Below, piece by piece: positions 9,583 to 25,386 of a stretch of DNA of 39,219 nt; the stretch's first letter is position 1; every line of letters begins with the position of its first letter. Source of the DNA: Candidatus Parcubacteria bacterium (GTDB lineage: Bacteria > Patescibacteriota > Microgenomatia > Levybacterales > UBA12049); contig JBDKFM010000002.1 in assembly GCA_039798685.1 (NCBI GenBank), forward strand, positions 1-39,219, written 5' to 3'. A model generated the notes under the pieces. It searched no databases. It was not told the DNA's origin and saw only the letters and a list, made by a program, of their open reading frames with translations. The translations under genes were made by a program, and so were the position numbers.

Positions 9583-10629
9583 CTATTCTTCGGGTAGTGG
9601 TGTCACCCCAGAAAATTGTGTCGTATAAAAATGCATACTTCTTTCAACAGCTTGTGGCCAACTTCCGTTGTTGAAGTTATGATTCTCACCCTGATAAACA
9701 AAATATTCATGTGTTATTTCTTTTTTGGTTAAAAGCTCATCAAACTGATCCGACCAACGCTTCGGTACTGCCTCATCCGCTGATCCCTGATGCAGCTGAA
9801 GAGGAGCTTGTATCCATGAAAGATATTTCGTGACAGTATACTCATAGACGTCATACTCCCGTTCGAATTCAGCAATAACTTTCCGAAGTGCCTTCCCTTC
9901 ATCATCAAACTCATCTGTAAAATACAAAATGTTATAGGGAAACGGTTTTGTGACAGGGGCCCACAGTACTGTCGGGATCGGTTTTCCCGAAATTGCCAAG
10001 ACGCTGAGTGCAATTTGCCCTCCGTTGCTATGCGCCCAGATACCGATCTTTGTCAGATCTGCTTGCTGTGTGAGATCGTCATCATTTTCAAGAGCAGTAT
10101 TCAAAGTACCAACGGATGCAAGAAGCGAGAGCGCTGTCGTATATGTTTGAAAGCGCTCTTCGATCGATTTCTCAGATGGCATATCTGACTCTCCATATCC
10201 TAAAAAATCAGGAGCGAGTGTGATAAATCCATTTCTCGCAAATTCCTCAGCCGTTCTTCTCGTTCCCTCACCGGTCGTATATATCTCACGGTCTACATAC
10301 CCGCGAAATAAAATAATCACAGGATATGTACCCTCTTTTACTGGGAGATTGAGAAGTCCGCTGACTTTTTTCTCACCGTCCCGAAAGTAAAACATACGGG
10401 ACGTAAACGCTTCATCTTCTTTTATTACTTTTCCAAATGTGATTTTTCCCTCAGGAAATGCAGTTTCCCTGAGACGCTTGTAGGAGTACTTCGCGAGTGG
10501 TTTTTCAAATATCCTCTGCTCTTTGGCAATAGGATTGACGATTTTTTCACTGATAGAACTTTTGAAAATATATAAGCCACCCCCTACACTAAGCCCGATG
10601 ACGAGAACAAGGATCAGTAGTTTCCACAT
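9583..10629 (-). CDS. Membrane-anchored alpha/beta hydrolase (S9 prolyl-oligopeptidase / dienelactone-hydrolase-like)
   Basis: N-terminal TM helix. Nucleophile elbow GIWAHSNGG (GxSxG-type). C-terminal LHQGSADEAVP and GENHNF supply the Asp/His of a catalytic triad. Confidence 0.75.
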   Translation of the reverse strand: MWKLLILVLVIGLSVGGGLYIFKSSISEKIVNPIAKEQRIFEKPLAKYSYKRLRETAFPEGKITFGKVIKEDEAFTSRMFYFRDGEKKVSGLLNLPVKEGTYPVIILFRGYVDREIYTTGEGTRRTAEEFARNGFITLAPDFLGYGESDMPSEKSIEERFQTYTTALSLLASVGTLNTALENDDDLTQQADLTKIGIWAHSNGGQIALSVLAISGKPIPTVLWAPVTKPFPYNILYFTDEFDDEGKALRKVIAEFEREYDVYEYTVTKYLSWIQAPLQLHQGSADEAVPKRWSDQFDELLTKKEITHEYFVYQGENHNFNNGSWPQAVERSMHFYTTQFSGVTPLPEE

Positions 10630-11267: not shown

Positions 11268-11948
11268 CTACTTCCCGAACCTTCTCTCCCGCGCGGCAAA
11301 ATCATCAAGAGCAATTTGCAGCTCCTTTTCATCAAAATCAGGCCAGAGAGTATCAGTAAAATAAAGCTCCGTATAGACAGACTGCCAAGGCAAAAATCCA
11401 CTAAGCCTTTTCTCTCCCCCTGTCCGGATCATAAAATCAGGATCGGGAATATTCGACGTGTAGAGATAATTGCTAAATTGCTTATCGTTTATCGCGAATT
11501 GCTTATCATCTACTGCTTTTTTTATTGCCTGGAGAATCTCATCCCTACCCCCGTAATTGAGAGCAATTGTGACCGTAATTTTTTTATTGTCTTTTGTTTC
11601 TTCAAGTAGCTTCTTTAAGTCACTTTGTATATCCTGAGGAAATTTGCTGATATCTCCGATGACTCCAAACTTTACGTCATTTTTCTTCATCCTCTCAACC
11701 ATGGGATCACGAAACATTCTCCTGAATACTTCCATCAGCACCGCAACCTCCTGCTCCGACCGCTGCCAGTTCTCAGTTGAGAATGCCCAGAACGTCACGA
11801 ATTTCACGCCTTTCTTTGATGCGTATTCAACAAGAGGCTCTATCTGATGCGCTCCTTTATCATGGCCAAAAAGCATCTCAAGTTTGTGTGATACTGCCCA
11901 ACGCCTATTACCATCCATGATAAACGCGATATGAGTTGGAATATTCAT
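11268..11948 (-). CDS. uppS: Undecaprenyl-diphosphate synthase (cis-prenyltransferase)
   Basis: HIAFIMDGNRRWA, FSTENWQRS and IRTGGEKRLSGFLPWQ are hallmark UppS motifs. Confidence 0.93.
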   Translation of the reverse strand: MNIPTHIAFIMDGNRRWAVSHKLEMLFGHDKGAHQIEPLVEYASKKGVKFVTFWAFSTENWQRSEQEVAVLMEVFRRMFRDPMVERMKKNDVKFGVIGDISKFPQDIQSDLKKLLEETKDNKKITVTIALNYGGRDEILQAIKKAVDDKQFAINDKQFSNYLYTSNIPDPDFMIRTGGEKRLSGFLPWQSVYTELYFTDTLWPDFDEKELQIALDDFAARERRFGK

Positions 11949-12008
11949 AATTTTAAATTTTCATTGAAGCTAAAAAATCTTAATTTTACACATTTACAGT
12001 GCAAAATC

Positions 12009-12040
12009 ATTTCAAATTTCGAATTTCAAATTGAAAATTA
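12009..12040. repeat. A/T-rich inverted-repeat family, copies in the idi-uppS spacer
   Basis: atttcaaattt (12009-12019) plus the 19-mer aatttcaaattgaaaatta (12022-12040). The same 19-mer recurs at 20743-20761. Each copy overlaps the TAA stop codon of the upstream gene. Confidence 0.8.
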
Positions 12041-12562
12041 CTCAAGAAACTTTACCGTTTCTATCGCCCATGGTGTATATTTCTCAGGATTCTTTTTCAC
12101 ATCAGTGATAAATTCCTGTTTCGGCATCCATTTATATTCATAAATCACATCGGGATTCGCAGCTACTTCCCCGTTATATTTCCCTACTAACACTGCGCAG
12201 TACTCATTTTCACAATGTGCATGATATTTTGCAAAGTAATTAAATCCTCCGATTTTTTCAATCGATACATCACGAATTCCCATCTCATCTTTGAGCGATC
12301 TATTCGCTGCTTCTTCATACGTTTCATCATGTCCCTCAGAAAAGTGCAACACATGACTAATCGCTGTAAGATCCCAATACTTATCCCACCTGACATGTTT
12401 TCGTAATTGCAAAAGCACCTCGCCCTTAGAATTTTCAAGAAGCACCACGAATGCACGGTGATGAATCCCATCCCCAAAATGACACTCACCTTTATCTTCA
12501 TATGCACCCGTCGGCACATCATTCTCATCGACAATAATCAGCTGTTGTCTGGCTTGGCTCAT
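12038..12562 (-). CDS. idi: IPP isomerase type 1-like Nudix protein (catalytic Cys position not conserved)
   Basis: Aligns along its length with E. coli Idi as I recall it: His pair CHFGDGIHH, HRAF, ENE (CENEYCAVLVG), W...SH. The NSVCGHP segment reads LTAISHV here. Sits between the MVD homolog and uppS. Confidence 0.65.
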   Translation of the reverse strand: MSQARQQLIIVDENDVPTGAYEDKGECHFGDGIHHRAFVVLLENSKGEVLLQLRKHVRWDKYWDLTAISHVLHFSEGHDETYEEAANRSLKDEMGIRDVSIEKIGGFNYFAKYHAHCENEYCAVLVGKYNGEVAANPDVIYEYKWMPKQEFITDVKKNPEKYTPWAIETVKFLE

Positions 12563-12571
12563 ATACTCTGT

Positions 12572-12580
12572 ATTTTAGCA
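12572..12580 (-). promoter_or_regulatory. Extended -10 promoter TGCTAAAAT, 9 nt upstream of the idi-like ATG
   Basis: Minus strand reads ttcTGCTAAAATacagagtatATG. Confidence 0.45.
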
Positions 12581-12590
12581 GAAAGAAGAA

Positions 12591-13034
12591 TTAGACGGAC
12601 TTTTCCTGAAGAAGTGGCGCGACAAGACATAAGCGCTCACGTTTTTGTGCAAGAGTAACATGAAACATCTCTTCTGAATTTCTTGGAGTTTCTCCAATCC
12701 ATCTATCATGATGCGCCTGATATGGAGCGACATCATGGGTCGTCGCATCATGTCCATGTATACGAGTTTGAAGCTCCCCACTCTCATCTCTCCGCTCATA
12801 GATTTCACCATAAGACAACTCCACGATGATTGGACGCTTATCAGGACTTAACACAGCATCAACTGGTGCAGCAGTCGCAAGTAATTCAGCTCTCGTTGGA
12901 AATAGTTCAGAATACACCAGAGTCATGAGCCCTTGCTCTCTTCTCACGCCATACGCTGCATGACGCATTTCTTTACCAGAATAAGCAACCTCAACGACGC
13001 TTCCGGAAATTGGATGTATTTCTCCTCTATTCAT
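12591..13034 (-). CDS. Hypothetical His-rich protein (147 aa) embedded in the MVA cluster
   Basis: ORF between the MVD and IDI homologs. TATAAT (13052-13057) lies 17 nt upstream. Contains the segment RIHGHDATTHDVAPYQAHHDRW. No family recognised. Confidence 0.6.
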   Translation of the reverse strand: MNRGEIHPISGSVVEVAYSGKEMRHAAYGVRREQGLMTLVYSELFPTRAELLATAAPVDAVLSPDKRPIIVELSYGEIYERRDESGELQTRIHGHDATTHDVAPYQAHHDRWIGETPRNSEEMFHVTLAQKRERLCLVAPLLQEKSV

Positions 13035-13100
13035 ATTCTTACAGGATATGGATTATAACGAAATAAAGCTAAAAAAACAAAAAAAATGCTCTTAAGGATT

Positions 13101-14081
13101 TTAGAACAGATGAGTATCGAGAAGATGCGCACCCTTTGATGCGTTTGAGGCGATGATTTGCTTCACGACAGATATTTCCCGCAATTTCTCAGAGAGAATC
13201 TTCTCTGTAGATTTCTCACAGAGTATATGGATATTCTGACCTGTGTTCATCGTGAAATAACACGCAAGCCCTTCACTTCTCCATCGCTGCACGGCTTTCA
13301 TAATAGTAATCGTTGCGGGGTACCAATAGATAAGTGAGGGGTGTGATGTCAGCATAATTGCATGCATTTCAAGAGCCTCTGATTCTGTGATCTCTCCAAA
13401 TATTTTAAAATCTTTTTCTTCAAGTGATTTCTTTATCCTTACAATTTTTTCTTTTATCAAATCTTGTCGAACTCGGAAGAAAGGACTCGATGCAGCCAAC
13501 TTCTGCCCCTCGGTTGTACTCACATCTTTTACCTGATCAGTAAGTATGACAGCGATGTCGATGATATCCCAATAATCCGGAGGATAAATACTCGTCGCAT
13601 ACGACATCTCTGACGTATCGCCATCACGCCACTCGACAAATCCATCGGGAATCGACCGACATGCCGATCCTGAACCCTGTCGCGCAAGGATGCTGAGTTC
13701 TTTTTCTGACAAATCTAATCCAGCGGCTTTTGTTGCGGCGAGTGTGAGTGCTGCAAATCCTGATGCAGATGAAGACAATCCGGTACCCCGCGGGAAACTA
13801 TTTTCTGAAACAACTTTTGCCCTCTCACTGATCCCTGCGAGCGCACGAACCCGATCAAGATGCGAGGAAACTTTTTCCTTTGTCCCATTCTTTTCTACAG
13901 TACCATTGATGACGACATCATCATCTCTCAGTGAGGAGTCAAATTCCACTGTCGTCGTTGTTGTAAGCTCCGACAAATTCATCGAGATACTTCCATTGCT
14001 TGGAAGCTTCAAAGCTTCATCTTTCCTCCCCCAATATTTTATGAATGCGATATTTGATGGAGCAATAACCGTACACTTCAT
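13101..14081 (-). CDS. mvaD: Diphosphomevalonate decarboxylase family protein (MVD/PMD homolog, atypical active-site motif)
   Basis: APSNIAFIKYWGRKDE, GLSSSASGFAAL and ARQGSGSACRSIPDGFVEW are hallmark motifs. The C-terminal motif reads CYFTMNTGQNIHIL instead of ...FTMDAGPN... Confidence 0.85.
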   Translation of the reverse strand: MKCTVIAPSNIAFIKYWGRKDEALKLPSNGSISMNLSELTTTTTVEFDSSLRDDDVVINGTVEKNGTKEKVSSHLDRVRALAGISERAKVVSENSFPRGTGLSSSASGFAALTLAATKAAGLDLSEKELSILARQGSGSACRSIPDGFVEWRDGDTSEMSYATSIYPPDYWDIIDIAVILTDQVKDVSTTEGQKLAASSPFFRVRQDLIKEKIVRIKKSLEEKDFKIFGEITESEALEMHAIMLTSHPSLIYWYPATITIMKAVQRWRSEGLACYFTMNTGQNIHILCEKSTEKILSEKLREISVVKQIIASNASKGAHLLDTHLF

Positions 14082-14179
14082 ACTTTAATTTCAAATTGCT
14101 AATGTGCAATTTTCAATATCCAATAATCTTTTCGTTTCCATTTGAAATTTGTTATTTGATATTTGAAATTTGAAATTCA
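14082..14179. repeat. A/T-rich inverted-repeat family, about 5 copies filling the kinase-MVD spacer
   Basis: aatttcaaattg (14087-14098), caattttcaat (14107-14117), atttgaaattt (14140-14150), atttgaaatttgaaatt (14161-14177). Opposite-orientation copies sit immediately after the upstream stop and just before the downstream ATG. Confidence 0.8.
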
Positions 14180-15163
14180 TTCAACCCTCACTCCTTCTGC
14201 ATTTGTTGTGACCTTAAGAACTTCTCCCCCCGCTTTCTCAATCGCGTTTTCAATAGCACGTGTACCCTGAGCATCATGAAGAGCTATCATACAATCCCCG
14301 CCTCCTGCACCTGAAAGTTTCGCTCCATATGCTCCGGCTCTTCTCACTGCGTCTATCATACCATCAAGCTTCTCTGTACTGACACCCAGTCCCACAAGTA
14401 ATTTCTGATTTTCATCCATCAACATGCCTGCTTCTTCGAAATCGTCTTTTTCAAGCGCTACTTTGGCTTTCTCAACAATTACTTCGATGTCTCTATACAC
14501 TGTCTCCACGAACTCCGGATTTTTCTGAGCGAGCTCCGCAACTTTATGTATCAAGGTTACCGTGTCTGCTTTGATCCCTGTATAACCAATGAGTAATGGT
14601 ACATGTTTTATGGATAATGGTTTTATTTCCTTTCCTCCTGTGACAAAATAAAGCGTACCGCCATATATCGCAGAAGCGACATCAAACCCAGACCCTTTCC
14701 CCTGAATATCTAAGACAGTTTTATATGAAAGATCAAAAATTTCTTTCTGTGATAAGTTCAGATCAAATAATTCTGAAAATGCTTTAGTAACACACACGGT
14801 TGTGGCGCTTGATGACCCAAATCCAAACGTCGATGCGAATTCCGATTTTGTGGAGATGTGGAGTCCGGCGATACGACTACGCGGCACACGCCCAGAATCG
14901 ATAAAATTTTTTACTGCGTACTCGACAAACCTCGCTCCTTTTGGAATCTCTCCCTTTCCCAACTCTTCTAATGATTTTTCGTAATTTTCTACCCCAACAT
15001 CCGGTGCATCTACACGTAGCGCTTTGCCCTTAGCGTTTTGCGAAACCATCAAATGCAGTCGTTGATCAACTGCGGTGACCAGACAGGGATGACCATACAC
15101 AACAGCGTGCTCACCAAAAAGCATCAGTTTTCCAGGAGCAGATACGGTAAGTGAACGCAGCAT
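14177..15163 (-). CDS. Mevalonate-kinase-like GHMP kinase, paralog 2 (candidate phosphomevalonate kinase or second MVK)
   Basis: APGKLMLFGEHAVVYG (MVK-type motif 1), GSGFDVASAIYGG (catalytic Asp), divergent P-loop FGFGSSSATT, canonical motif 3 KLSGAGGGDC. Only 3 nt lie between the upstream stop and its ATG. Confidence 0.8.
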   Translation of the reverse strand: MLRSLTVSAPGKLMLFGEHAVVYGHPCLVTAVDQRLHLMVSQNAKGKALRVDAPDVGVENYEKSLEELGKGEIPKGARFVEYAVKNFIDSGRVPRSRIAGLHISTKSEFASTFGFGSSSATTVCVTKAFSELFDLNLSQKEIFDLSYKTVLDIQGKGSGFDVASAIYGGTLYFVTGGKEIKPLSIKHVPLLIGYTGIKADTVTLIHKVAELAQKNPEFVETVYRDIEVIVEKAKVALEKDDFEEAGMLMDENQKLLVGLGVSTEKLDGMIDAVRRAGAYGAKLSGAGGGDCMIALHDAQGTRAIENAIEKAGGEVLKVTTNAEGVRVE

Positions 15164-15166
15164 ACG

Positions 15167-16240
15167 TTAGTGCACAGTGAGGCCGGATGCACCCAAACGG
15201 ATTCCGACCGGTGTGAGATTAAACTGTGCCAAAACATCTTCAAGTGTTTTCTTATCACTATGATACACGAGGAGATGACCAGTACCTCTGATTTTTCCTC
15301 CTCCCCCCGAGATCTTCGCAGCGCCACCTGACGCCTCAATACTCCTGATGATATTTTTGACGTTACCCGATACTACTTCCAATTGCTCAAGATTTTTTTC
15401 ACCCTGCTTAATAATCTCAATCAAATCCGCCTCATGATTATTCTTAAGGACAATCACCATATCCCGTGTCACTTTTTCCAGATCATTAAATACATTCGCC
15501 ACAAACTCAATTTTCTCATTATAAAGATCTCGTACTGCCTGCACCATCTCTCCTGTCGACTCCTCAGGAATTCCCGTGTCTACCAAATAAAACCGTGACG
15601 CGATCGGATCCAAAATCCCAAACGGCACACGCTGCACAACTTTCAGTACCTCAGATTCCTTTCGAAACCAGATCAAATTTCCGCTCGAGACTATCGCCGC
15701 ATCACCACCGGACGGATTTCCATGTTTTTTCTGCTCGATAAGTACCGCAATTTCATGCACTGTTGCCATCTCAAGTTTCTTCCCGAGAAACGTGATGATC
15801 GCTGTTGCAACTGCAGCCGCAAGTGCAGCGGACGAACCAAGCCCGGCACCCATCGGAATATCTGAGGTGATGGTGAGTGTAAAACCGCTCTGTGGTGGAA
15901 CTCCAAGATACAAGAGCGTCTCCCCGATTGCAATCGCGAGATAATCAACCGGATCTTTCGTGATCGCCTTCAGTATCTGTGAATCTTTCTTGTCCAGAAA
16001 ATCCTCCCACTGCTTCTGACCTCTATATGTTTTTTCCATGACCTCATCGAGTGTCAGAATAACATCTGTCTTAGTATCTTTTGAGATAATCTGAATTTTC
16101 GCATCACTTCTTGGCAGAAGATGAACCGTACATCTCCTATCGATTGCAGCCAAAAGAGCCGGTTTTCCATACACGACGGCATGTTCACCCATGAGATGAA
16201 TTTTTCCGGGAGCGGAGACAGTAATTGCCTGCATGAGCAT
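15167..16240 (-). CDS. mvk: Mevalonate kinase (GHMP kinase), paralog 1
   Basis: APGKIHLMGEHAVVYGKPALLAAID, HGNPSGGDAA, PMGAGLGSSAALAAAVA, KISGGGG. These are the most canonical MVK motifs of the two paralogs. An alternative start is the ATG at 16234. Confidence 0.82.
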   Translation of the reverse strand: MLMQAITVSAPGKIHLMGEHAVVYGKPALLAAIDRRCTVHLLPRSDAKIQIISKDTKTDVILTLDEVMEKTYRGQKQWEDFLDKKDSQILKAITKDPVDYLAIAIGETLLYLGVPPQSGFTLTITSDIPMGAGLGSSAALAAAVATAIITFLGKKLEMATVHEIAVLIEQKKHGNPSGGDAAIVSSGNLIWFRKESEVLKVVQRVPFGILDPIASRFYLVDTGIPEESTGEMVQAVRDLYNEKIEFVANVFNDLEKVTRDMVIVLKNNHEADLIEIIKQGEKNLEQLEVVSGNVKNIIRSIEASGGAAKISGGGGKIRGTGHLLVYHSDKKTLEDVLAQFNLTPVGIRLGASGLTVH

Positions 16241-16257
16241 CTATTATACTATGTGTT

Positions 16258-16266
16258 TGCTATAAT
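16258..16266 (+). promoter_or_regulatory. Extended -10 promoter TGCTATAAT, 7 nt upstream of the ATG at 16274 (leaderless arrangement)
   Basis: Read directly: ttTGCTATAATtcccaagATG. Confidence 0.55.
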
Positions 16267-16273
16267 TCCCAAG

Positions 16274-16975
16274 ATGCAACCACGCTTAGAACAACTACGA
16301 CCAATATTGCCTGAAGAAGCCGAGGTAATCTCGCATATGCCGATCAACAGGCTCTTCATCCTTGTGCACCCGCTCAACGAGCCACTTGGTGATGTACTCC
16401 TGGACACCAATCACACCAGACGTGTACGGAAAGATTTTTTCGAAAATGCACTGACACATTTTACCCCGCACTCACCAAATGACGTCCTCGTTCTCATCCC
16501 AAATGTCGGTCCGAGATTTCACGACTTCAGAACAAATGTACTGAAAACAAAAGTCATGATGGAGCAATTTCACACAAACTACTCATGGGTATCATTGGCA
16601 GATGCTTTCGAACATACCACTGAGTTTCCACGACAAGTGATCATCGGAGAGAATATCCCTGATCCTTCTGTCCCTGCAACGGTACTTGAGAAACGACTTG
16701 AAAAACATGGATTCGGTATCATGTCTGACACAACAATTGTCCTCGGAGGAGAACTCGCTCCAAACTGCGTAATGGACGCAGCACTTGATCTCTTATCACT
16801 TCCGCAGGTTGGGTCTGTATTTATAGATCTCAGAGTGATTGTAGGTATCGCAGATTATGCAAGAAAAGGAATGTATACACCAGAACACACAGCCGTCACG
16901 TTTGCAAAACGGATGTTTCCTTTCCATGAGGTAACAAGAGGAGGAGAAAATTTACTGAAGGTCTCAAATCACTAA
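16274..16975 (+). CDS. Hypothetical protein (233 aa), opposite strand inside the MVA cluster
   Basis: The track ORF starts at 16121 and overlaps the kinase gene. It was trimmed to the ATG at 16274, directly behind the extended -10 element. No confident family assignment. Confidence 0.6.
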   Translation: MQPRLEQLRPILPEEAEVISHMPINRLFILVHPLNEPLGDVLLDTNHTRRVRKDFFENALTHFTPHSPNDVLVLIPNVGPRFHDFRTNVLKTKVMMEQFHTNYSWVSLADAFEHTTEFPRQVIIGENIPDPSVPATVLEKRLEKHGFGIMSDTTIVLGGELAPNCVMDAALDLLSLPQVGSVFIDLRVIVGIADYARKGMYTPEHTAVTFAKRMFPFHEVTRGGENLLKVSNH

Positions 16976-17283
16976 GCTGCACTTGCAGCGCGTAGACGTA
17001 GTCTTGCCACGTACGCATATGCTGCACCCATCGCTTCAATAGAGATCCCAAGCTCAGGTAATTTCGTCGCAATTGCCACACCGGAAAATGCAACGATCAC
17101 ACCACGAAGTACATCTCCTTTCGAAACATCGACACCACCCCCCTGACCATTTTCCGAGTGAGGTGTACTACCGAAATGTTCACTGACAGAGATTGACTGA
17201 GGGACATCACGAACAAACTCTCCTCCGCTCAATTCAGAGTTCTGAAAACTTGGTACCCTTCCGTTTCCACTCTCAGGTTTCAT
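16972..17283 (-). CDS. Hypothetical protein (103 aa) with hydrophobic C-terminal half
   Basis: The ATG at 17283 is preceded by TGTTACGAT and a 6-nt spacer. Its stop codon interlocks with the stop of the convergent gene (CTAA at 16972-16975). Confidence 0.5.
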   Translation of the reverse strand: MKPESGNGRVPSFQNSELSGGEFVRDVPQSISVSEHFGSTPHSENGQGGGVDVSKGDVLRGVIVAFSGVAIATKLPELGISIEAMGAAYAYVARLRLRAASAA

Positions 17284-17289
17284 GTGCGA

Positions 17290-17298
17290 ATCGTAACA
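17290..17298 (-). promoter_or_regulatory. Extended -10 promoter TGTTACGAT, 6 nt upstream of the ATG at 17283
   Basis: Minus strand reads ataTGTTACGATtcgcacATG. Confidence 0.45.
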
Positions 17299-17334
17299 TA
17301 TGGACTCTTTGGAATCAATTACGAACTCAGGAGA

Positions 17335-18075
17335 CTACATCTGATGACGCGATAAGGAGCTTGTTATCTGTACGACGTATCGATCCTGCATGACATGTGC
17401 AATTCTCCCGTCCACGAAAGAAATATTTGCAGGACTTCCTTCCGAATACTCACTGAGCAATGGAAGCACATTTGCCTCAAGTAATGAATTGGTTACTAAA
17501 TATCTCTCATCGGTTGTAAATGTTGTAATTAACATCGGTCGACTTGCCATAGACATCAAATTTCCCCACTCAGCCAGGACATGATTCATGATCGGATCAG
17601 GTCCGATACTTGGATGCCGAGCAATCACCACATCAGGCATCGTGCCAAGTACACGCAAAATAGCGTCAGGACTTTTCTTACCCAGATCCTCTTCAAGCCA
17701 TACGGCATCTGCCTTCATAGCTGAAAGTACACCCATCTCCCCAACACTCTTATCAACTCCCATAATAAGTGACTCCGGAAAAAGAGCTCGCGCATGCAAA
17801 AGCTCACTTCCCTCACCAAAACCCAAAAACAGAAGAGACGGTGCATGAGGCAGTGCATCACGATCAAGATACTTCGCAAAAAAATCAGGGAGATGAGACG
17901 AGATATCCAATAAAGTATCTGTCGCAGCGTCAATGATGTCCCTAATAAGGCTACCATCGGGTAAAGAATTAAACACAATAGATGATTCTTCAGGCCTTTC
18001 TTTTATCGCTGTAACAAGCATTTGTACAGCAGCATAAATCTGCTCCTCATCCGGACTCAGTGTTTCTGCGCTCAT
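17335..18075 (-). CDS. Hypothetical protein, possibly a class I SAM-methyltransferase-like Rossmann fold
   Basis: SLLFLGFGEGSELL...LIMGVDKS resembles MTase motif I plus the acidic post-I residue, and DVVIARHP resembles motif IV. Weak. TATAAT (18084-18089) lies 8 nt upstream of the ATG. Confidence 0.55.
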   Translation of the reverse strand: MSAETLSPDEEQIYAAVQMLVTAIKERPEESSIVFNSLPDGSLIRDIIDAATDTLLDISSHLPDFFAKYLDRDALPHAPSLLFLGFGEGSELLHARALFPESLIMGVDKSVGEMGVLSAMKADAVWLEEDLGKKSPDAILRVLGTMPDVVIARHPSIGPDPIMNHVLAEWGNLMSMASRPMLITTFTTDERYLVTNSLLEANVLPLLSEYSEGSPANISFVDGRIAHVMQDRYVVQITSSLSRHQM

Positions 18076-18120
18076 GACGATGGATTATAGCGAATTGGGA
18101 AGAAAATTAAAACTATGAGT

Positions 18121-18423
18121 CTAAAGTGGTTTAAATTTGATTCCGTAGGGGATGATGTTTTCCTTGTCCTCATGAGTAATCCGACGCATCACTGCAACGA
18201 CTCTCATACCTGATTTCAGATCTTTTTCTGTCCAGTCAACCAACTGCCCAACCATCATCTCGCCAGTACCGAGGCGCACAATTCCGACTGGATACGGTGC
18301 TTGGTCAGCAAAATTCTTCGGGGGCACCCGAACGATCGTCCAGTACAGAAGCTCCCCTTTCACTCCGATATGATTGACAAGTTTCTTCCCTCTTCTCCAC
18401 AATTTCACAGGTGTCGTGATCAT
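18121..18423 (-). CDS. DUF35 OB-fold protein (thiolase/HMG-CoA synthase scaffold family), lacking the zinc ribbon
   Basis: GELLYWTIVRVPPKNFADQAPYPVGIVRLGTGEMMVGQLVDW...GMRVVAV matches the DUF35 C-terminal OB fold. Only 100 aa and no Cys at all. Immediately downstream of the thiolase. Confidence 0.75.
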   Translation of the reverse strand: MITTPVKLWRRGKKLVNHIGVKGELLYWTIVRVPPKNFADQAPYPVGIVRLGTGEMMVGQLVDWTEKDLKSGMRVVAVMRRITHEDKENIIPYGIKFKPL

Positions 18424-18500
18424 ATGTATCGAAATTTCAAATAGATACCAATTTCAAATTTCCAATGATTCCTTCTTTCGCTATCAGTCATTTGAAATTA
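18424..18500. repeat. A/T-rich inverted-repeat family, copies in the thiolase-DUF35 spacer
   Basis: aatttcaaat (18433-18442), aatttcaaattt (18450-18461), atttgaaatt (18490-18499, overlapping the thiolase TAA stop). A 51-nt unit (18449-18499) aligns with the 43-nt unit at 14107-14149. Confidence 0.8.
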
Positions 18501-19658
18501 GAAATTATTTTTTTTAAATATATGAACTGTCGCAATCGCTCCTGATCCTCCGACGTTATGCGCCAGACCTATCTTTGCATCTGTGACAGACTGCTTCTCA
18601 CCAGCAGTCCCCATGAGCTGCTCAAATATCTCAACTGCCTGTTTGACACCGGTTGCACCGACCGGATGACCGCATGCCTTAAGTCCTCCTGAAGGATTGA
18701 CGATCGTTTTTCCTTTTCCTCTGGTAAATTTCCCTTTCTTCAGATCCGATGCTCCTTTTCCGGTTTCTGAGAACCCCAGATCCTCAACTGCGATTAACTC
18801 AGCGATACTGAAACAATCATGCACCTCAGCGACATCGACATCGACTGGCCTCAACCCTGCCCGGGCGTATGCACGTCTCCCCGCATCTTTTGCTGCATTG
18901 AGAGACGTAAATGATGCACGCTTATGAAGTGCCAATGTATCAGTCCCTACTTCACTTGCGACAATCGAAACACTATTTTTTGAGATAATCTTCGGGTCAC
19001 TACTGATAATCACGCATGCGCCGCCGTCAGTAACGGGTGAACAATCAAGTAATTTTAGAGGGTCGGCAATCCTGCTGCTTTTCATTACATCAGCAACAGT
19101 TACCTTAAACTTAAACTGCGCCTTCTGATTGTATGATCCGTGAAAATGATTTTTTACCGCAACTTCCGCCAGGTCCTCCTCTTTGTACTTATATTCGGAC
19201 ATATATGCCTGCGCCATGAGTGCATATAATCCGGGAAATGTAATCCCCGATCCCCGCTCCTCATCGGACCCTGCCGCCATGAGCGCAGATGCAACAAGAT
19301 CACCTCCGGCATCAGTCATTTTCTCAATCCCCAACACAGCAACTGTCGTATAGAGTCCTGCTTTAATGCTATTTATTGCATTATGCAATGCCACTCCTCC
19401 TGATGCACACGCTGCCTCAAGCCTAAACGCAGGAACCGGTGAAAGCCCCAACTCTTCGGCATAAAACGAACCAATATTTTCCTGATGTCCGAGAAGTCCA
19501 CCAAGCATATTTCCCACATAGAGCGCCTCTACTTTTGATGACGAAATCCCGGATTGTGCCAAAGCAGAATTGAATGCTTCTTTCGCAAGTTCCCGAGGAG
19601 AGCTCGTCCAAAGCTCACCGAATTTTGTTGTCGCCGCTCCTATAATTGAAATATTCAT
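18498..19658 (-). CDS. Acetyl-CoA acetyltransferase (archaeal-type thiolase)
   Basis: Active-site EAACASGG. NPSGGLKACGHPVGATG. HNVGGSG near the C-terminus. Sits between HMGCS and DUF35, as in archaeal operons. Confidence 0.88.
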   Translation of the reverse strand: MNISIIGAATTKFGELWTSSPRELAKEAFNSALAQSGISSSKVEALYVGNMLGGLLGHQENIGSFYAEELGLSPVPAFRLEAACASGGVALHNAINSIKAGLYTTVAVLGIEKMTDAGGDLVASALMAAGSDEERGSGITFPGLYALMAQAYMSEYKYKEEDLAEVAVKNHFHGSYNQKAQFKFKVTVADVMKSSRIADPLKLLDCSPVTDGGACVIISSDPKIISKNSVSIVASEVGTDTLALHKRASFTSLNAAKDAGRRAYARAGLRPVDVDVAEVHDCFSIAELIAVEDLGFSETGKGASDLKKGKFTRGKGKTIVNPSGGLKACGHPVGATGVKQAVEIFEQLMGTAGEKQSVTDAKIGLAHNVGGSGAIATVHIFKKNNF

Positions 19659-19684
19659 AATAACTATTTTCTATTTGCCACACC

Positions 19685-20722
19685 CTACAACTTGTGTGTT
19701 TTCTGCAAATATTGTAGATAACTTATATATTCTTTATCAGCAATCTGTGTACTGACAGGAATCGTTTTTTTCTGAAAATCAGTAATTTTTTTTGTTGTCT
19801 CGAAGATAAATCCGTCAGCTCCCGCTCCTGATCCGTACGAGACAAAAAATATCTTCTGTCCTGGCTTTGCAGTATCCAACACTTCAGCAAGCCCGAGCAT
19901 TGCAGACGCTGTATATGGGTTTCCGACCATATCGACAGTCAACGAGGGAAGAAGTTGTTCTTTAGTGAATCCAAGCTTTGCTGCAACAGCGCGGGGAAAC
20001 TTACCGTTTGGCATATGAAAGACGCAATAGTCAAAATCAGATGGCTGCATCTGTGATTTCATAAGTAGTGCATGCGCCTCCCCTAACACATGCGCAAAAT
20101 ATGCCGGTTGACCGGTAAACCTTCCGAAATGCGAAGGATACCGCACGCCATCTCTCCTCCAAAAATCCGGTGTGTTTGACGAGAATGATGACATCTCTTT
20201 TATTTCAGCAATCAATTCATCTTTATTGCTCCCCAGGATATACGCTGCCGCGACACTCGCAGCGCTGTACTCAAGTACATCATGTGGTTTTGCTTGTGCG
20301 GTATCAGATCCAATGACGAGTCCGTATCCGATCTCTCCGCTCCCGAGTAACCCGGCAGTGACCTGCATTGCAGCAGTTGCTGCCTTACAGGCGAATTTCA
20401 TATCAACTGAAAAATAGTGATTTCCCATCCCGATCGCCTCTGCAATAATTGTCGCTGACGGATTGACCGCATAGGGATGACTCTCTGATCCGACGAACAC
20501 ACTTTGCAGCTTTTTCGCATCCAGTCCGCATGCACGAAGTGCCGAGACCGTCGCCTCAACACCCATTGTGATCGCATCCTCATCAGTGTTGGGGACGGCT
20601 TTTTCCTTCACCTGAATCGCATCCACGATATCCGCAGGATTTTTCTGCCATGCCCGAGCGATATCCTCAATTTTAATTCTGTAATGCGGAATATATGTAC
20701 CGTATGAAACAATGCCTACCAT
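19685..20722 (-). CDS. mvaS: Hydroxymethylglutaryl-CoA synthase (archaeal-type, about 345 aa)
   Basis: MVGIVSYGTYIPHYRI N-terminus, VGSESHPY (Glu), KFACKAAT (Cys), CVFHMPNGKF (His). Confidence 0.88.
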   Translation of the reverse strand: MVGIVSYGTYIPHYRIKIEDIARAWQKNPADIVDAIQVKEKAVPNTDEDAITMGVEATVSALRACGLDAKKLQSVFVGSESHPYAVNPSATIIAEAIGMGNHYFSVDMKFACKAATAAMQVTAGLLGSGEIGYGLVIGSDTAQAKPHDVLEYSAASVAAAYILGSNKDELIAEIKEMSSFSSNTPDFWRRDGVRYPSHFGRFTGQPAYFAHVLGEAHALLMKSQMQPSDFDYCVFHMPNGKFPRAVAAKLGFTKEQLLPSLTVDMVGNPYTASAMLGLAEVLDTAKPGQKIFFVSYGSGAGADGFIFETTKKITDFQKKTIPVSTQIADKEYISYLQYLQKTHKL

Positions 20723-20735
20723 AATAAAAATTTTT

Positions 20736-20761
20736 AATTTACAATTTCAAATTGAAAATTA
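20736..20761. repeat. A/T-rich inverted-repeat family, copy in the HMGR-HMGCS spacer
   Basis: aatttacaatttcaaattgaaaatta. The last 19 nt are identical to 12022-12040 and 24 of 26 nt match 12015-12040. It overlaps the HMGR TAA stop. Confidence 0.8.
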
Positions 20762-21910
20762 TTTCCCTCTCCCCAATCGTCTATGACTCTCTGCAAGGCT
20801 TCCCTCTGAGAGACTAGCCAGAAGCGAGATCTCCCCTGCCAGACAAGCTGCGACGACAATCTGTGCAAACTCCTCAATTTTCCCTTCACCGCTGACGCCG
20901 AGAATTTGCAGTGCTTCTTTTTGTGTCGGAAGATTTGTTCCTCCTCCAACTGTACCAACGAGTAGCGCCGGCAGATACACGCCAACATATAAATCACCAT
21001 TTTCAAGCACTTTCGCTGTCGTAATCCCAAGCGACCCTTCAACGACGTGCGCCGGATCCTGTCCTGTCGCGAGAAATATCGCTGCGATCACATTTGCGAG
21101 ATGCGCATTAAAGCCCATTGACCCTGCGGCTGCTGATCCCAGCATTACTTTTCCGAGCCACACATCAAAAAACTTCTCGGGCGTCGTCTTCAGTATCTCT
21201 TTTAGAACTCTTCTTTGAAGAACGACCTCAGCCCACGCTTTCGTCCCTCTCGCAGATATCGCATTGATCCATGCCGGCTTCTTGTCAGTATCAAAATTTC
21301 CCGCAACAGAAAGACACGGAATCCCTGTTTCTTTTTCGATATATGAAACCGCCGCCTGTGTCGCGATCGTCGCCATATTCATCCCCATCGCATCCCCTGT
21401 GTCATAGGAAAAACGAAGAAAGGTATAATTCGGTAAACTCTTTGTTGTGACGTCCAATAACTGCAGATGTCCTGATGTCGCTTCGGTAATTGCTTTGATC
21501 TTTTTCTTCTCTTCTTTTATAAACGTATGCAGTCTTGTGCCTTCTTGTATTGAAGCTGTGTAAAAAACTGGTCCGCGACTCATACCGACTTTATGCGTAT
21601 GGACAACTGCTCCACCAGATTCCGAGATCGCCTTACAACCACGACTAATTGATGCTACAAGCGCTCCCTCAGTCGTCGCTAATGGCAAATAATAATCTTT
21701 ATTTGTAATTTGAGAGTTGAAATTTGAAATTTTCAGTGGTCCCGCAATCCCAAGTGGGATTTGTACGGCACCAATCATGTTTTCGCAGTTTTTGGTTGAG
21801 GCAATCTCAAGTTCCGGAGAATATGTCGCAATATGTGGTAGCTCAGCAGAAATCTCCTGCTCTAGGGCTTTGCGTCTCGTTTTTGTGTCAGGTAAATCTC
21901 GTATCTTCAT
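20759..21910 (-). CDS. mvaA: HMG-CoA reductase, class I (soluble archaeal/eukaryotic-type catalytic domain)
   Basis: ENMIGAVQIPLGIAGPL, LPLATTEGALVAS, GDAMGMNM, GTVGGGT, C-terminal ESHRRLGR (His). An SD-like AGGAGAGG lies 9 nt upstream of the ATG. Confidence 0.9.
   Translation of the reverse strand: MKIRDLPDTKTRRKALEQEISAELPHIATYSPELEIASTKNCENMIGAVQIPLGIAGPLKISNFNSQITNKDYYLPLATTEGALVASISRGCKAISESGGAVVHTHKVGMSRGPVFYTASIQEGTRLHTFIKEEKKKIKAITEATSGHLQLLDVTTKSLPNYTFLRFSYDTGDAMGMNMATIATQAAVSYIEKETGIPCLSVAGNFDTDKKPAWINAISARGTKAWAEVVLQRRVLKEILKTTPEKFFDVWLGKVMLGSAAAGSMGFNAHLANVIAAIFLATGQDPAHVVEGSLGITTAKVLENGDLYVGVYLPALLVGTVGGGTNLPTQKEALQILGVSGEGKIEEFAQIVVAACLAGEISLLASLSEGSLAESHRRLGRGK
21691..21736. 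repeat. Repeat-family-related segment inside the HMGR coding sequence
   Basis: In mRNA sense, AAATTTCAAATTTCAACTCTCAAATTACAAAT matches GAATTTCAAATTTCAAATATCAAATAACAAAT of the 14147-14179 spacer at 28 of 32 positions (manual alignment). AAAGATTATT follows in both. The segment encodes KISNFNSQITNKDYY. Confidence 0.6.
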
Positions 21911-22040
21911 ACTAGAAAGCCTCTCCTGTCAAGCTGCCAAATCATGATTTTCCGCGGCATCTAAACGTGAGAGGAATTCCTGTACTCTTTTATCGGATCT
22001 TATTCGAAAATCATTCGGGTAGGAATGAGATGGAGTTGCC

Positions 22041-22688
22041 TTATATTCCGTCAAGATGCGCTCTCACCTGATGAAATAACTTTGGTTCAAATGCGCGCAC
22101 AATTACAGATGGGATAGAATTCTGTTTAAATCCATCAAGCAGTGCAAACGACAGTCGCAATTGTGAGAGTAATGCGTCATCCATCGGTGCGATCACAAGA
22201 GGTACAGGATAAATAATCTCACTATTTTCTTTGTATTTAAAGTTCTCATAGATTATCTGTCCATTTTTCATACCTTTCTTTTCAGCCAGCATCAGCGCCG
22301 TATCTTTCTGCAACGGAACCTGCACTGAGAGATAGGAGAAAAGTCGGTTATTGTCCTCTCTGAACCGAAACACCTCATGAGTCCCGGATACATTACTTGA
22401 GTCCGGTTCAAAATCACCTAACGCTTCGACCTGATCAGTATCTGCAACAACCCAGATCTTCCTCCCGTCACCATATCCTGTCTGTTGCTTTCTTGCATAA
22501 ATAATAAAATTGAAAGGATCCAATTCTTCATCTACCACAATTGCAATCTCAGATGATGCAGTCTCAGCAAACTCACGTTGTAGTTCGCGACCATTTAACA
22601 CCGGTCCAAACGGACGTATCATTTCACCTAATTTATACACCGGAACACGCTTCTTCTCAGGAGTGGCCGGTTGCTCTGGATGGGACAT
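22041..22688 (-). CDS. Hypothetical protein (215 aa)
   Basis: The ATG at 22688 is preceded by TATAAT (22695-22700) and a 6-nt spacer. No recognisable motif. Confidence 0.6.
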   Translation of the reverse strand: MSHPEQPATPEKKRVPVYKLGEMIRPFGPVLNGRELQREFAETASSEIAIVVDEELDPFNFIIYARKQQTGYGDGRKIWVVADTDQVEALGDFEPDSSNVSGTHEVFRFREDNNRLFSYLSVQVPLQKDTALMLAEKKGMKNGQIIYENFKYKENSEIIYPVPLVIAPMDDALLSQLRLSFALLDGFKQNSIPSVIVRAFEPKLFHQVRAHLDGI

Positions 22689-22748: not shown

Positions 22749-23501
22749 TTATATTTGTCGGTACTCCCAGGGAATAATTTTTTTCCGTAACAGTATCACA
22801 AGTAAATACAGTACAAAGCTCATACACGAAGAAAAAATAATGAGTGCAAACAAGAGATCTATTCTATGGGAATTTGCTGCCTGTAACATGACAATCCCAA
22901 GCCCCCTGTACCCCCCAACAAATTCCCCAACAATCGCCGCAGCAATCGCATACACAACTGAGATCGAAAGTCCAGCCATAAAAAACGGCATACTGGCTGG
23001 TAACTTTGCTTTCAAGAGTATCTGAGCTCTCGTCGCGTGCATACTTTTCAGAAGAAAGAGAATATCCTTATTGAGTGACCCCAACCCCTCACTCATCGCG
23101 AGTGTGACCGGGAAGAAACAGTACAACACAACGATGATCACTTTTGGAGAGGTACCGAATCCGAACCATACAAGAAGAAGAGGCGCAAGCGCCATAATCG
23201 GTATCGTTTGTGAAAGAACCAGTATGGGTGAGAATACATGTTTTATCCGTTCCGATGCGTCGATACCAATCGCCAGCAACACTCCCAGCACAATACTTAT
23301 GCAGAGTCCTAATAACGCTTCAAAAAGCGTCGTCAAAGCATTCACAAACACCAGTTCCCAATTACGAGCCAGTGCATCAAGCACCGACAATGGATCAGGA
23401 AGAAAACGTGGACTAATCCCTGAATACATCACGACAATCTGCCACAACACGATACATCCTCCTATACCTATTCCACACCACACAGATCTACCGATCTTCA
23501 T
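22749..23501 (-). CDS. thiX: ABC transporter permease (NitT/TauT family, ThiX-like)
   Basis: Six TM helices with a BPD-type permease core (ALTTLFEALLGL...LVLSQTIPIMALAPLLLVWFGFG). Trimmed from the track start (23645) to the ATG at 23501 (MKIGRSVW...), which overlaps the ATPase gene by 14 nt. Confidence 0.8.
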   Translation of the reverse strand: MKIGRSVWCGIGIGGCIVLWQIVVMYSGISPRFLPDPLSVLDALARNWELVFVNALTTLFEALLGLCISIVLGVLLAIGIDASERIKHVFSPILVLSQTIPIMALAPLLLVWFGFGTSPKVIIVVLYCFFPVTLAMSEGLGSLNKDILFLLKSMHATRAQILLKAKLPASMPFFMAGLSISVVYAIAAAIVGEFVGGYRGLGIVMLQAANSHRIDLLFALIIFSSCMSFVLYLLVILLRKKIIPWEYRQI

Positions 23502-24291
23502 GCGTCTCTCCTTCCTGTGATCTAAAAAAATACGACGCGATCTCCTCTTCAAGTAAAAGTGCTTTTTTTGTTCTGAGCCATTTCCTGTCTCTTTTCCCAC
23601 TATACCCAACAGAAATATCGGCAACAATGCGTGCGGGACGGTCACTCATTATGAGAATCCTGTCTGAGAGCAGAATCGCCTCGCTTATATCATGTGTCAC
23701 CAAGAGCACAGTAGACTTGTACCGTGTACGAAGACGCATTAGCCAGAGCTGGAGCGAAAAACGAGTCAGTCCGTCAAGGGACCCAAACGGCTCATCCAAA
23801 AGAAGAAATGATGTATTGAAAAGTATTGTTCGAAGAAGCGCCACCTTCTGCTGCATACCGCCTGAAAGTGAAGATGGATACGAATCTGCATATTTCAATA
23901 GATCAAACTCCCGCAGTAATCTAAGCGATTTTTTAATCATCATCTGTCGTGGCCACCCTTGTATCTCAGGTCCTAACGTAATATTTTGCAACACTGTACG
24001 CCAGGGAAAAAGTGTTGAAGATTGTGGCATATATCCACACTTCCCTGCCAACTGACCCGAAGTCCCTGAGAGGACAATTGATCCATCAGTCGGTGCAATC
24101 AAGCCAGCGATAAGATGAAGCAACGTACTTTTTCCGCATCCACTCGGCCCGATGATGCTCACAAACTCTCCGGCACGCAAACGAAACGAGAGTGAAGAAA
24201 GTACGGGAGTTGCAGCAAAGTCCATGCTGACACGGTGAAGCTCCAACTGCACTCCGGTAATATTTTTATTACTTTTCAAATAAGAAGACAT
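23488..24291 (-). CDS. thiZ: ABC transporter ATP-binding protein (NitT/TauT family, ThiZ-like)
   Basis: Walker A GPSGCGKST, signature LSGGMQQKV, Walker B LLLDEPFGSLD, H-loop VTHD. Confidence 0.88.
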   Translation of the reverse strand: MSSYLKSNKNITGVQLELHRVSMDFAATPVLSSLSFRLRAGEFVSIIGPSGCGKSTLLHLIAGLIAPTDGSIVLSGTSGQLAGKCGYMPQSSTLFPWRTVLQNITLGPEIQGWPRQMMIKKSLRLLREFDLLKYADSYPSSLSGGMQQKVALLRTILFNTSFLLLDEPFGSLDGLTRFSLQLWLMRLRTRYKSTVLLVTHDISEAILLSDRILIMSDRPARIVADISVGYSGKRDRKWLRTKKALLLEEEIASYFFRSQEGETHEDR

Positions 24292-25294: not shown

Positions 25295-25384
25295 ATTCCT
25301 CTCGCCGGCATTACCCGGATCAGGTTCCATGGGTCGTCCGGTTTTCCGAACCTCTCAGCCTGCCATACAAGCTCCCCTCTCAGT
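25295..25384 (-). promoter_or_regulatory. TPP (THI-box) riboswitch
   Basis: Minus strand reads ACUGAGAGGGGAGCUUGUAUGGCAGGCUGAGAGGUUCGGAAAACCGGACGACCCAUGGAACCUGAUCCGGGUAAUGCCGGCGAGAGGAAU, then AUG. Conserved elements GGGGaGC, GCUGAGA, ACCC, AACCUGAUCcGGgUAAUgCCgGCG and AGaGGAA are all present. The P3 stem AGCUUG/CAGGCU and P5 stem CCGG/CCGG can be drawn. I could not identify the P1 helix by eye. Confidence 0.85.
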
Positions 25385-25386
25385 GC

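Follow-up and report, generated by a model that had tools for sequence, protein, structure and literature searches.

Short periodic palindromic repeats at intra-operon junctions of the mevalonate gene cluster in a Microgenomates-type bacterium of the candidate phyla radiation

The closest described counterparts of the elements that concern us here are direct repeats of the heptamer TAACTGA, found in marine Beggiatoaceae and also in some Cyanobacteria and Bacteroidetes (MacGregor 2015, PMC4679880). A role in translation was proposed for the Beggiatoaceae repeats and never tested (PMC4679880). More generally, heptanucleotide units dominate the long simple sequence repeats (SSRs) of bacteria (Mrazek 2007, as summarised in PMC4679880). 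Another kind of repeat, the REPIN, consists of two inverted repeats around a spacer and folds into a long hairpin (PMC3116915, PMC3337134), and enterobacterial repeats have been described inside genes (PMC2759123). On the functional side, translational coupling through RNA unfolding is established as a mechanism, exemplified by E. coli rpmI-rplT, phage f1 genes VII-IX and the MS2 coat-lysis/replicase region (reviewed in PMC12548453). The elements described here lie in the mevalonate (MVA) gene cluster of a 39,219-nt stretch of DNA (contig JBDKFM010000002.1; called the window below, meaning the whole of the sequence analysed) from a Microgenomates/Levyibacteriota-like bacterium of the candidate phyla radiation (CPR). 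Literature searches for earlier reports of hairpins of this kind in CPR, Patescibacteria or Microgenomates found none. To the same background belong the cyanobacterial short tandemly repeated repetitive (STRR) sequences, which are heptamer arrays; the repetitive extragenic palindromes (REPs), which are typically G+C-rich, number more than 100 copies per genome and have a conserved 5' GTAG and a cognate gene for a REP-associated tyrosine transposase (RAYT, a Y1 transposase); and the Rickettsia palindromic elements (RPEs), small palindromic repeats that are also inserted in frame into genes.

The evidence gives good support to the view that the elements are the local family of a wider class of short periodic palindromic repeats, similar to REPINs and to miniature inverted-repeat transposable elements (MITEs), with arms built of 7-9 nt tandem units, a class located at intra-operon junctions of Microgenomates-type CPR genomes. 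In the window, their signature is the 10-mer AATTTCAAAT, the junction word of (ATTTCAA)n arrays and of the inverted (TTGAAAT)n. Counted exactly on both strands, it occurs 10 times where 0.41 copies are expected, and 0 of 100 shuffles reach that number. Four spacers of the MVA cluster contain nine of the copies, and the tenth is inside the HMGR coding sequence:

12022 (+), 14087 (+), 14140 (-), 14161 (-), 14168 (-), 18433 (+), 18450 (+), 18490 (-), 20743 (+) and 21722 (-): exact copies of AATTTCAAAT

A preliminary description of this DNA had noticed the over-representation of the word and its confinement to the cluster, with no further exact copy in the 39 kb, and the exact count agrees on all these points. 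Most of the sites that it listed are also correct. At 12009, there is only a 9-mer (ATTTCAAAT), the 10-mer at that place being CATTTCAAAT, with one mismatch; the last site, given as 21720, is at 21722-21731, within a coding sequence and not in a spacer. When one mismatch is allowed, the window contains 31 matches against 9.2 expected. Between 11949 and 21731 there are 26 of them, 22 in the four spacers (11949-12037, 14082-14176, 18424-18497 and 20723-20758) and 4 in HMGR (21701-21731). Base composition alone does not account for the count, since shuffles that keep the spacers' own dinucleotide content predict 0.10 exact copies in these A/T-rich spacers, where 9 are seen. The copies are not independent events, because they belong to period-7 tandem arrays detected by Tandem Repeats Finder (TRF) at 12009-12032, 14140-14177, 20727-20760 and 21701-21732. 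The repeat pattern is real and non-random. As had been reported, one and the same 19-mer, AATTTCAAATTGAAAATTA, occupies 12022-12040 and 20743-20761, and each copy overlaps a TAA stop, that of the NUDIX/IDI-like gene and that of HMGR, respectively. The inverted arrangement reported with it is equally present: the arms 14087-14124 and 14140-14177, of 38 nt each, are 71% complementary, and the arms 18439-18459 and 18490-18510, of 21 nt each, are 81% complementary.

In mRNA sense, every one of the four spacers opens with the motif inside or abutting the upstream stop codon. The predicted structures are AU-rich, regularly bulged hairpins whose stem base includes the stop codon in 4 of 4 spacers, although the one between HMGR and HMGS hardly folds. 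Three hairpins fill nearly the whole co-directional spacer, the 3' arm ending 2-13 nt before the ATG, and the fourth is a 36-nt remnant. The elements, all read on the minus strand, are the following:

14082 to 14179, minus strand: kinB-MVD spacer, with the fullest element; its 5' arm begins within the stop codon and its 3' arm stops 5-6 nt short of the ATG
18424 to 18500, minus strand: thiolase-DUF35 spacer, with exact 10-mers at 18490 (-), 18450 (+) and 18433 (+)
11949 to 12040, minus strand: spacer between the NUDIX/IDI-like gene and UPPS, which opens with the 19-mer TAATTTTCAATTTGAAATT, followed by CGAAATTTGAAATG (a period-7 array)
20723 to 20761, minus strand: HMGR-HMGS spacer, a 36-nt remnant with the 19-mer at the TAA stop

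The placement of one copy at the stop codon and of a complementary copy shortly before the next ATG, as well as the scarcity of Shine-Dalgarno (SD) sequences in these spacers, had been recognised correctly in the preliminary description; its alignable units of 43-51 nt can be aligned, if loosely. The kinB-MVD spacer reads, in mRNA sense, TGA-(ATTTCAA ATTTCAA ATATCAA ATAACAA ATTTCAA)-loop GGAAACGAAAAG on its 5' side and (ATTGGAT ATTGAAA ATTGCAC ATTAGCA ATTTGAA)-ATTAAAGT-ATG on its 3' side. Its array at 14140-14177 contains 5.4 copies, and its calculated folding energy is -15.2 kcal/mol in the sense strand (z -1.95) and -18.9 in the antisense strand (z -3.3). In the thiolase-DUF35 spacer, a stem of TAATTTCAAATG and ATTTGAAATTGG encloses a loop that contains GCGAAAGAAGGAAUCAUUGG, and another small hairpin, GTATC-TATTTGAAATTTC-GATAC, stops 2 nt short of the ATG; the fold is weak (-12.8 kcal/mol, z -0.27). 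The spacer between the NUDIX/IDI-like gene and UPPS forms a single long imperfect hairpin, from the TAA stop to 13 nt before the ATG, with an array of 3.4 copies at 12009-12032 and an energy of -18.8 kcal/mol (z -2.24) for the sense strand and of -8.3 for the antisense strand.

The HMGR-HMGS junction can be followed in a closely related contig, L161 (GCA_964610225.1; L numbers designate the loci compared), which is about 96% identical to the window. The window remnant folds with -3.3 kcal/mol. In L161, the junction is 94 nt long and forms a full periodic hairpin from the stop codon, in which 1-nt bulges interrupt helices of 6 bp (-16.2 kcal/mol). The 58 nt present in L161 and missing from the window are flanked by direct copies of TTTGAAATT. 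The arms act as terminal inverted repeats, and the indel might be the presence/absence difference of a MITE with its target-site duplication; but TTTGAAATT is itself the repeat unit, and a deletion by slippage or recombination fits the indel equally well. The other spacers have changed little between the two contigs: 95 of 95 nt are identical at kinB-MVD, there is one single-nucleotide polymorphism (SNP) in 74 nt at thiolase-DUF35 (a spacer identical in L162), and 3 SNPs and 1 indel separate the UPPS spacers.

No terminator-like site is present in the four spacers; with A/T-rich stems, and with no T-run in the copies of the window, the hairpins do not qualify as intrinsic terminators. Rfam 15, used at its gathering threshold, gave no match at the spacers. 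The TTGAAA word was also considered as a promoter element. The sole spacer match, TTGAAA-N18-TATTAT (20750-20721), would be useless for HMGS, because its -10 box falls on the HMGS ATG, and this candidate was rejected.

These features are not peculiar to the window. Among the MVA junctions of 51 CPR-type loci, 156 measure 15 nt or less (mostly ATGA-type overlaps), 14 measure 16-33 nt and 65 measure 34-180 nt. For the most part, the long spacers are hairpins with arms of tandem 7-9 nt units, the sequences of which are genome-specific. A spacer was called periodic when its self-match at a lag of 6-10 was at least 50%. By this measure, 48 of 218 co-directional spacers are periodic, as against 1 of 71 convergent and divergent ones (p=6.5e-6), and that one is a miscalled co-directional junction. 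The same pipeline called 45 of 200 spacers periodic in CPR-type loci, 1 of 113 in non-CPR low-GC loci (mostly archaeal) and 6 of 182 in non-CPR high-GC loci, that is, 7 of 295 in the non-CPR controls combined. Period 7 is the commonest. Folding was evaluated over co-directional spacers of 30-200 nt, with z < -2.5 taken as a hairpin; 45% of the spacers inside MVA clusters and 27% of those outside pass this limit. In 66 related hairpins, the stem starts at a median of 3 nt after the stop codon and ends at a median of 6 nt before the ATG. A -10 box of the leaderless type precedes the start in 12% of hairpin or periodic spacers and in 28% of ordinary ones (p=0.005), while SD-like words occur in about 15% of both classes.

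The repeat unit changes from genome to genome. The nearest genomes to the window are Levyibacteriota/Microgenomates metagenome-assembled genomes, L001 and L002, whose HMGR proteins are 80% and 68% identical to that of the window, and at these junctions both have units that differ from the window's. Exact AATTTCAAAT is absent from the L001 locus, which uses AAGATCAAA / TTTGATCTTTGCGCTTTGAGATT, a unit confined to the MVA cluster within that 21 kb locus; L002 has CATTGTT and ATATCAAAT. Further units are GAAATCC in L097 and TAGAGCT and ATTAAAA in L096. Conversely, one family may be found in distant genomes. The 10-mer of the window recurs in the distant L013, where it lies at the HMGR stop codon and again behind the gene that follows, and the CATTGTT family can be aligned at three different junctions, HMGR-HMGS in L002, DUF35-kinA in L003 and rplM-rpsI in L004, the last of which also holds a hairpin. 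In L004, the MVA genes overlap, and hairpins made of AAATAGT arrays are found at map-infA, infA-rpmJ, rpmJ-rpsM and rpoA-rplQ (rpmJ was identified by eye). Within the 39 kb, the A/T-rich inverted-repeat family of the window is present in MVA-cluster spacers only, as described. The phenomenon as a class is not MVA-specific, because elements of this kind, and in some cases the same families, sit at non-orthologous junctions, including those of ribosomal-protein operons. As for covariation, L161 is too close to be informative (0-3 SNPs per spacer), and the spacers of L001 and L002 carry non-homologous units. An apical loop, AAACGAAGAAAT, present exactly in L013 and at two places in L096, and in approximate form in the window, looked like a conserved part of the elements and was discarded, being neither enriched nor strand-biased across 70 hairpins (9 to 5).

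How do these elements compare with the described systems? Like the TAACTGA repeats of Beggiatoaceae, they consist of 7-nt units (2-6 copies there, 3.4-5.4 in the intergenic arrays here), stand a few nucleotides upstream of starts (the elements end 2-13 nt before the ATG) in SD-poor genomes, where SD-like words are rare, and are present in ribosomal-protein operons and occasionally inside open reading frames (ORFs) (PMC4679880). They differ in that the Beggiatoaceae have one fixed unit, almost always in direct orientation (one inverted set) and spread over the genome (PMC4679880), whereas in the CPR lineage units are many and about half of the arrays are inverted, forming hairpins from stop to start. 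Since the unit sequence differs, this is the same kind of element and not the same family. With REPs and REPINs, the elements share short imperfect extragenic palindromes or inverted doublets, families that are homogeneous within a genome and a location between operon genes (PMC3116915, PMC3337134). The window elements are indeed imperfect extragenic palindromes of this kind, but their stems are A/T-rich, their arms are tandem arrays of variable copy number, GTAG is not present at their ends in the window and no RAYT was seen there. The long heptanucleotide SSRs and the STRR sequences have in common with them the intergenic period-7 unit and copy-number indels consistent with slippage; they are described as direct arrays, without a paired inverted array or a tight stop-to-start placement. 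In RNA-unfolding coupling, a hairpin likewise covers the downstream initiation region, with the opposite arm in the stretch that the upstream ribosome is translating or on which it terminates (PMC12548453). Those hairpins are unique, selected gene by gene and usually mask an SD sequence, whereas those of the window are supplied by a repeat, cover no SD sequence and would act in coupling by inference. Finally, RPEs and the small mobile repeats of enterobacteria resemble the present elements in being found in frame within tolerant protein loops as well as between genes; they differ from them in sequence, size and lineage, and the likeness is one of arrangement. The feature can thus be regarded as a variant of heptamer simple repeats and REPIN-like palindromes, its distinctive part being the stop-to-start placement in CPR operons.

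This placement suggests a function, and the account that we tentatively favour, while remaining somewhat more doubtful than convinced, is that the heptamer palindromes are retained because their hairpins hold stop and start codons together for translational coupling. The translation of internal operon genes without SD-led initiation is poorly understood, and CPR bacteria are not culturable for direct study. In the window, an SD-like word lies upstream of few of the 41 starts, and TATAAT or TACAAT is found about 12-14 nt before the ATG in many. Because the organism has few SD motifs and many leaderless-type -10 boxes, its internal cistrons would rely on the upstream ribosome. The elements would arise or insert via slippage and recombination between heptamer copies. 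They would persist at junctions if the spacers are transcribed and the hairpin, folded in vivo, places stop and start codons side by side, keeping the A/U-rich stretch before the ATG paired until a ribosome terminating at the upstream stop melts the lower stem. The downstream gene would then be translationally coupled across a gap of 36-95 nt, through RNA unfolding or re-initiation. In the three foldable spacers, the geometry is the appropriate one, the 5' arm being within reach of the upstream terminating ribosome and the 3' arm within the downstream initiation footprint. The rationale is strongest for thiolase, HMGS and DUF35, because these genes are overlap-coupled in most relatives; thiolase and DUF35 overlap or nearly abut in 28 of 48 loci. 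In archaea, the three proteins form a stoichiometric complex. The depletion of leaderless-type -10 boxes in hairpin or periodic spacers lends indirect support to a dependence of the downstream gene on upstream translation. Between the window and L161, 4 of 289 sites differ in the hairpin spacers, as against 109 of 1376 at 4-fold degenerate sites (p=7.6e-6), and 6 of 607 differ when all spacers are taken (p=9e-12). L082 and L083, which are 81% identical overall, share an orthologous hairpin in which both 18-nt arms are identical and the loop has diverged.

Several observations weigh against coupling. The low spacer divergence is only moderate evidence, because the divergence between the window and L161 is mosaic, from 0.3 to 11% per gene, which weakens the test of constraint. 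The window hairpins are weak (-3 to -19 kcal/mol; sense z +0.15 to -2.2), and direct arrays that form no hairpin account for about half of the periodic spacers. No RNA-level strand signal appears in the folding energies, the sense strand and the antisense strand splitting 38 to 31 (p=0.51). The first examples had given the impression of a polarity between A-rich and T-rich 5' arms, and this fell at 34 to 27. The stem geometry from stop to start is in part a built-in result, since the element takes up almost the entire spacer. At map-infA in L004, the hairpin lies downstream of a promoter-like TTGTTC-N17-TATAAT (our own reading of the sequence); it would there be a 5' untranslated region (5'UTR) and not a bridge between two cistrons. 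Lastly, library data from E. coli tie structure just after the stop codon to poorer coupling (PMC12548453).

The main non-functional alternative is that the elements are selfish or neutral DNA, either REPIN/MITE-like mobile palindromes or slippage products of the long SSR type, functionless and piling up in intra-operon spacers as the sole non-coding places that have neither promoters nor terminators. We regard it as possible and clearly less probable than retention for coupling. It draws on the families shared by distant genomes at non-orthologous junctions, the turnover of units among such close relatives as the window, L001 and L002, the 58-nt indel bounded by direct repeats, and the heptamer arrays and GC-rich palindromes that stand in frame within an HMGR loop (see below). 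The absence of both strand bias and arm polarity points the same way, as does the fact that many relatives manage without spacers, and heptanucleotides are the commonest class of long SSRs in bacteria, which Mrazek (2007), as cited in PMC4679880, ascribed to polymerase slippage. Against neutrality stand the divergence of the spacers, far below that of 4-fold sites, and the stems of L082 and L083, conserved around diverged loops. The elements are moreover tolerated at junctions of essential ribosomal-protein operons, in streamlined genomes from which junk is expected to be lost. The copy number of the arms is variable, not that of fixed terminal repeats, and none of the window ORFs that were scanned with Pfam has a transposase domain, although a RAYT might lie elsewhere in the genome. 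A REPIN/MITE-like or slippage origin of the heptamer palindromes and their retention for coupling both fit the data and can be combined. Of the three candidate roles first proposed for the repeats, two are still live and mutually compatible: that of an RNA structure acting in coupling or processing, and that of a MITE-like repeat. Were the elements merely selfish or the products of slippage, they would still be a previously undescribed class of repeat, usable as strain markers and as a record of a 7-nt slippage bias.

A wider proposal, which in its entirety we consider unlikely, is that Microgenomates-type CPR, lacking SD-led initiation and favouring leaderless starts, use heptamer hairpins that bridge stop and start as a lineage-wide, sequence-independent device for translating internal cistrons across long spacers, acting via unfolding-coupled re-initiation, ribosome shunting or cleavage to near-leaderless mRNAs; the genome-specific, locally shared units, with one word repeated at every junction of a cluster, might then serve as an operon-level address for pairing between junctions or for one trans-acting factor. 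If coupling holds true, periodic hairpins would be a simple and portable way to link stop and start, and would account for the bimodal junctions of CPR operons, which are either overlapping or about 35-180 nt long. For annotation, it matters that such repeats can be mistaken for pathway-specific regulatory motifs and that heptamer arrays also enter protein loops.

The main functional rival of coupling is a role in mRNA processing or stability. Cleavage by RNase III or another endonuclease, protective 3' or 5' stem-loops, or partial terminators would give the cistrons separate half-lives and so set the ratios of the enzymes, and a cut near the 3' base of the stem would leave a very short leader, suited to initiation of the leaderless type. 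Duplexes of 20-40 bp with regular bulges between cistrons are compatible with this, leaderless-type starts are widespread in the genome, and REP hairpins are known to influence mRNA turnover (PMC3479197). Some hairpins of relatives are followed by a T-run (L082, L083 and L002 8588-8676, for example), and the L004 infA hairpin, apparently in a 5'UTR, would suit a stability element. The window stems, however, are weak and GC-poor, and would be poor exonuclease blocks; the four spacers have no terminator-like site; and there is no folding bias towards the sense strand. We consider such a role quite unlikely.

Very unlikely, in our opinion, is the idea that the arrays act single-stranded, as sites for an RNA-binding protein (S1, Csp-like or CsrA-like) that recruits or blocks ribosomes at SD-less starts, as proposed for the TAACTGA repeats of Beggiatoaceae. 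The arrays do stand immediately before start codons where SD sequences are scarce, hairpin-free direct arrays make up about half of the periodic spacers, the 3' arms repeatedly contain the words ATTGGA and GGA, and the closest published parallel shares position, period and ribosomal-protein operon context (PMC4679880). Yet the units vary so widely between and within genomes that no single protein motif is evident, the arms have no orientation bias relative to transcription, and the strand bias of the loop motif ACGAA, 9 to 5 in 70 hairpins, is non-significant.

That the copies are operators for a DNA-binding regulator specific to the mevalonate cluster, another role suggested in the preliminary description, is the least likely reading and hardly credible: the core TTTCAA-T-TTGAAA is palindromic, the word is confined to the cluster within the window and L001's own word is likewise cluster-confined in its locus, but the sites lie at internal gene junctions and no copy falls in the promoter-like regions 21911-22040, 18076-18120, 13035-13100 and 16241-16290 (upstream of HMGR, unk246, unk147 and kinA, respectively), the 7-bp tandem period would set successive sites on different helix faces, orthologous clusters have unrelated words, as in L001 and L002 at the same junctions, or, in most relatives, no spacer there at all, the same architecture recurs in the ribosomal-protein operon junctions of L004, and the search for a regulator gene in the cluster was negative, the six unannotated ORFs in or beside it giving no Pfam match, no meaningful NCBIfam match and no DNA-binding domain.

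The copy of the word inside HMGR belongs to an array of its own:

21701 to 21732, minus strand: period-7 array AATTTCA AATTTCA ACTCTCA AATTACA AAT within HMGR (TRF, 4.6 copies)

It encodes a variable loop, KISNFNSQITNK, between GPL and YYLPLATTEG. In other genomes, this loop is encoded by other heptamers, TTCAGAG in L001, AATCTCA in L005, ATTAAAA in L096 and TTAAGAA in L136, and L002 (about 5030-5200) and L003 have in-frame insertions of 30-45 residues with GC-rich CCGCCAG...CTGGCGG palindromes, which also occur in intergenic spacers. This loop of HMGR is a hotspot for insertions and arrays.

The MVA cluster genes are on the minus strand. Two ORFs without Pfam match follow DUF35, then a conserved ORF on the opposite strand. 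In order of transcription, the genes are:

21910 to 20759, minus strand: HMGR, first in transcription order
20722 to 19685, minus strand: HMGS
19658 to 18498, minus strand: thiolase
18423 to 18121, minus strand: DUF35, followed by the two ORFs without Pfam match
16240 to 15167 and 15163 to 14177, minus strand: two GHMP kinases, kinA and kinB
14081 to 13101, minus strand: MVD, followed by one ORF without Pfam match
12562 to 12038, minus strand: NUDIX/IDI-like gene
11948 to 11268, minus strand: UPPS

The opposite-strand ORF, of about 233 residues, is kept in the middle of the MVA cluster in the window (16270-16975, plus strand), L161 (11450-12151, minus strand), L001 (13987-14730) and L002 (10222-10818). 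It has no Pfam or NCBIfam match and is preceded by a leaderless-type TATAAT-N7-ATG. Across window positions 11268-22688, the comparison with L161 gives differences of 0.3-0.7% for DUF35, kinA and MVD and of 9-11.5% for HMGR, kinB and unk103, a mosaic that suggests recent recombination inside the cluster. Between unk147 and the NUDIX/IDI-like gene, L161 contains two additional genes, Cyt-b5 and a 74-residue ORF.

Upstream of HMGR, a non-coding block is kept in the window (21950-22015, minus strand), L001 (9860-9930), L002 (4690-4760) and L161 (6350-6420). It reads CGAATGATTTT...CGATAAAG.GTA.TACAGGAA, and GAATGA-N17-ATAAA(A/G) is retained in the window, L001 and L002. The block looks like a candidate operon promoter followed by a structured leader of about 70 nt. 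In the window at large, almost no gene has an SD sequence, and in many a TATAAT or TACAAT ends 6-8 nt before the ATG, for example upstream of 18075, 22688, 31875, 4486, 35494 and 26747. This placement of -10 boxes suggests that leaderless mRNAs are widespread in the organism.

Beyond the cluster, the sole Rfam match of the window is a thiamine pyrophosphate (TPP) riboswitch (25279-25388, minus strand; RF00059, 58.8 bits), which lies directly upstream of a gene for an NMT1/THI5-like binding protein (24269-25330). ATP-binding cassette transporter genes (23488-24291 and 22749-23645) are next to the latter, and together these genes are probably a thiamine-precursor uptake operon adjoining the MVA cluster. 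The window contains another period-7 array, of ATAAGCG (3.9 copies, 4425-4455), near the 5' end of a DUF2207 gene (2696-4486, minus strand); the sequence of this array is unrelated to the AATTTCA family.

A second, G+C-richer class of palindromes, TGTCATTCC/TGTCATCC ... GGAATGACA/GGATGACA, is found in intergenic regions of many CPR loci, including convergent and divergent junctions:

L002, 7360-7425: G+C-richer palindrome
L004, 5780-5850: same class
L017, 20129-20250: same class
L092, 500-670 and 1000-1070: same class
L095, 4455-4530: same class
L104, 1200-1270: same class
L135, 8800-8880: same class

L002 also has a local repeat family of its own, the word TAGGACCGTCC, which occurs four times (3870-3925, 4645-4680, 9900-9935 and 10045-10085) around divergent and convergent genes and is flanked by the short tandem units GTCCCCATAGTG, CTTTTGGGGAC and GTCCCTAAGGT.

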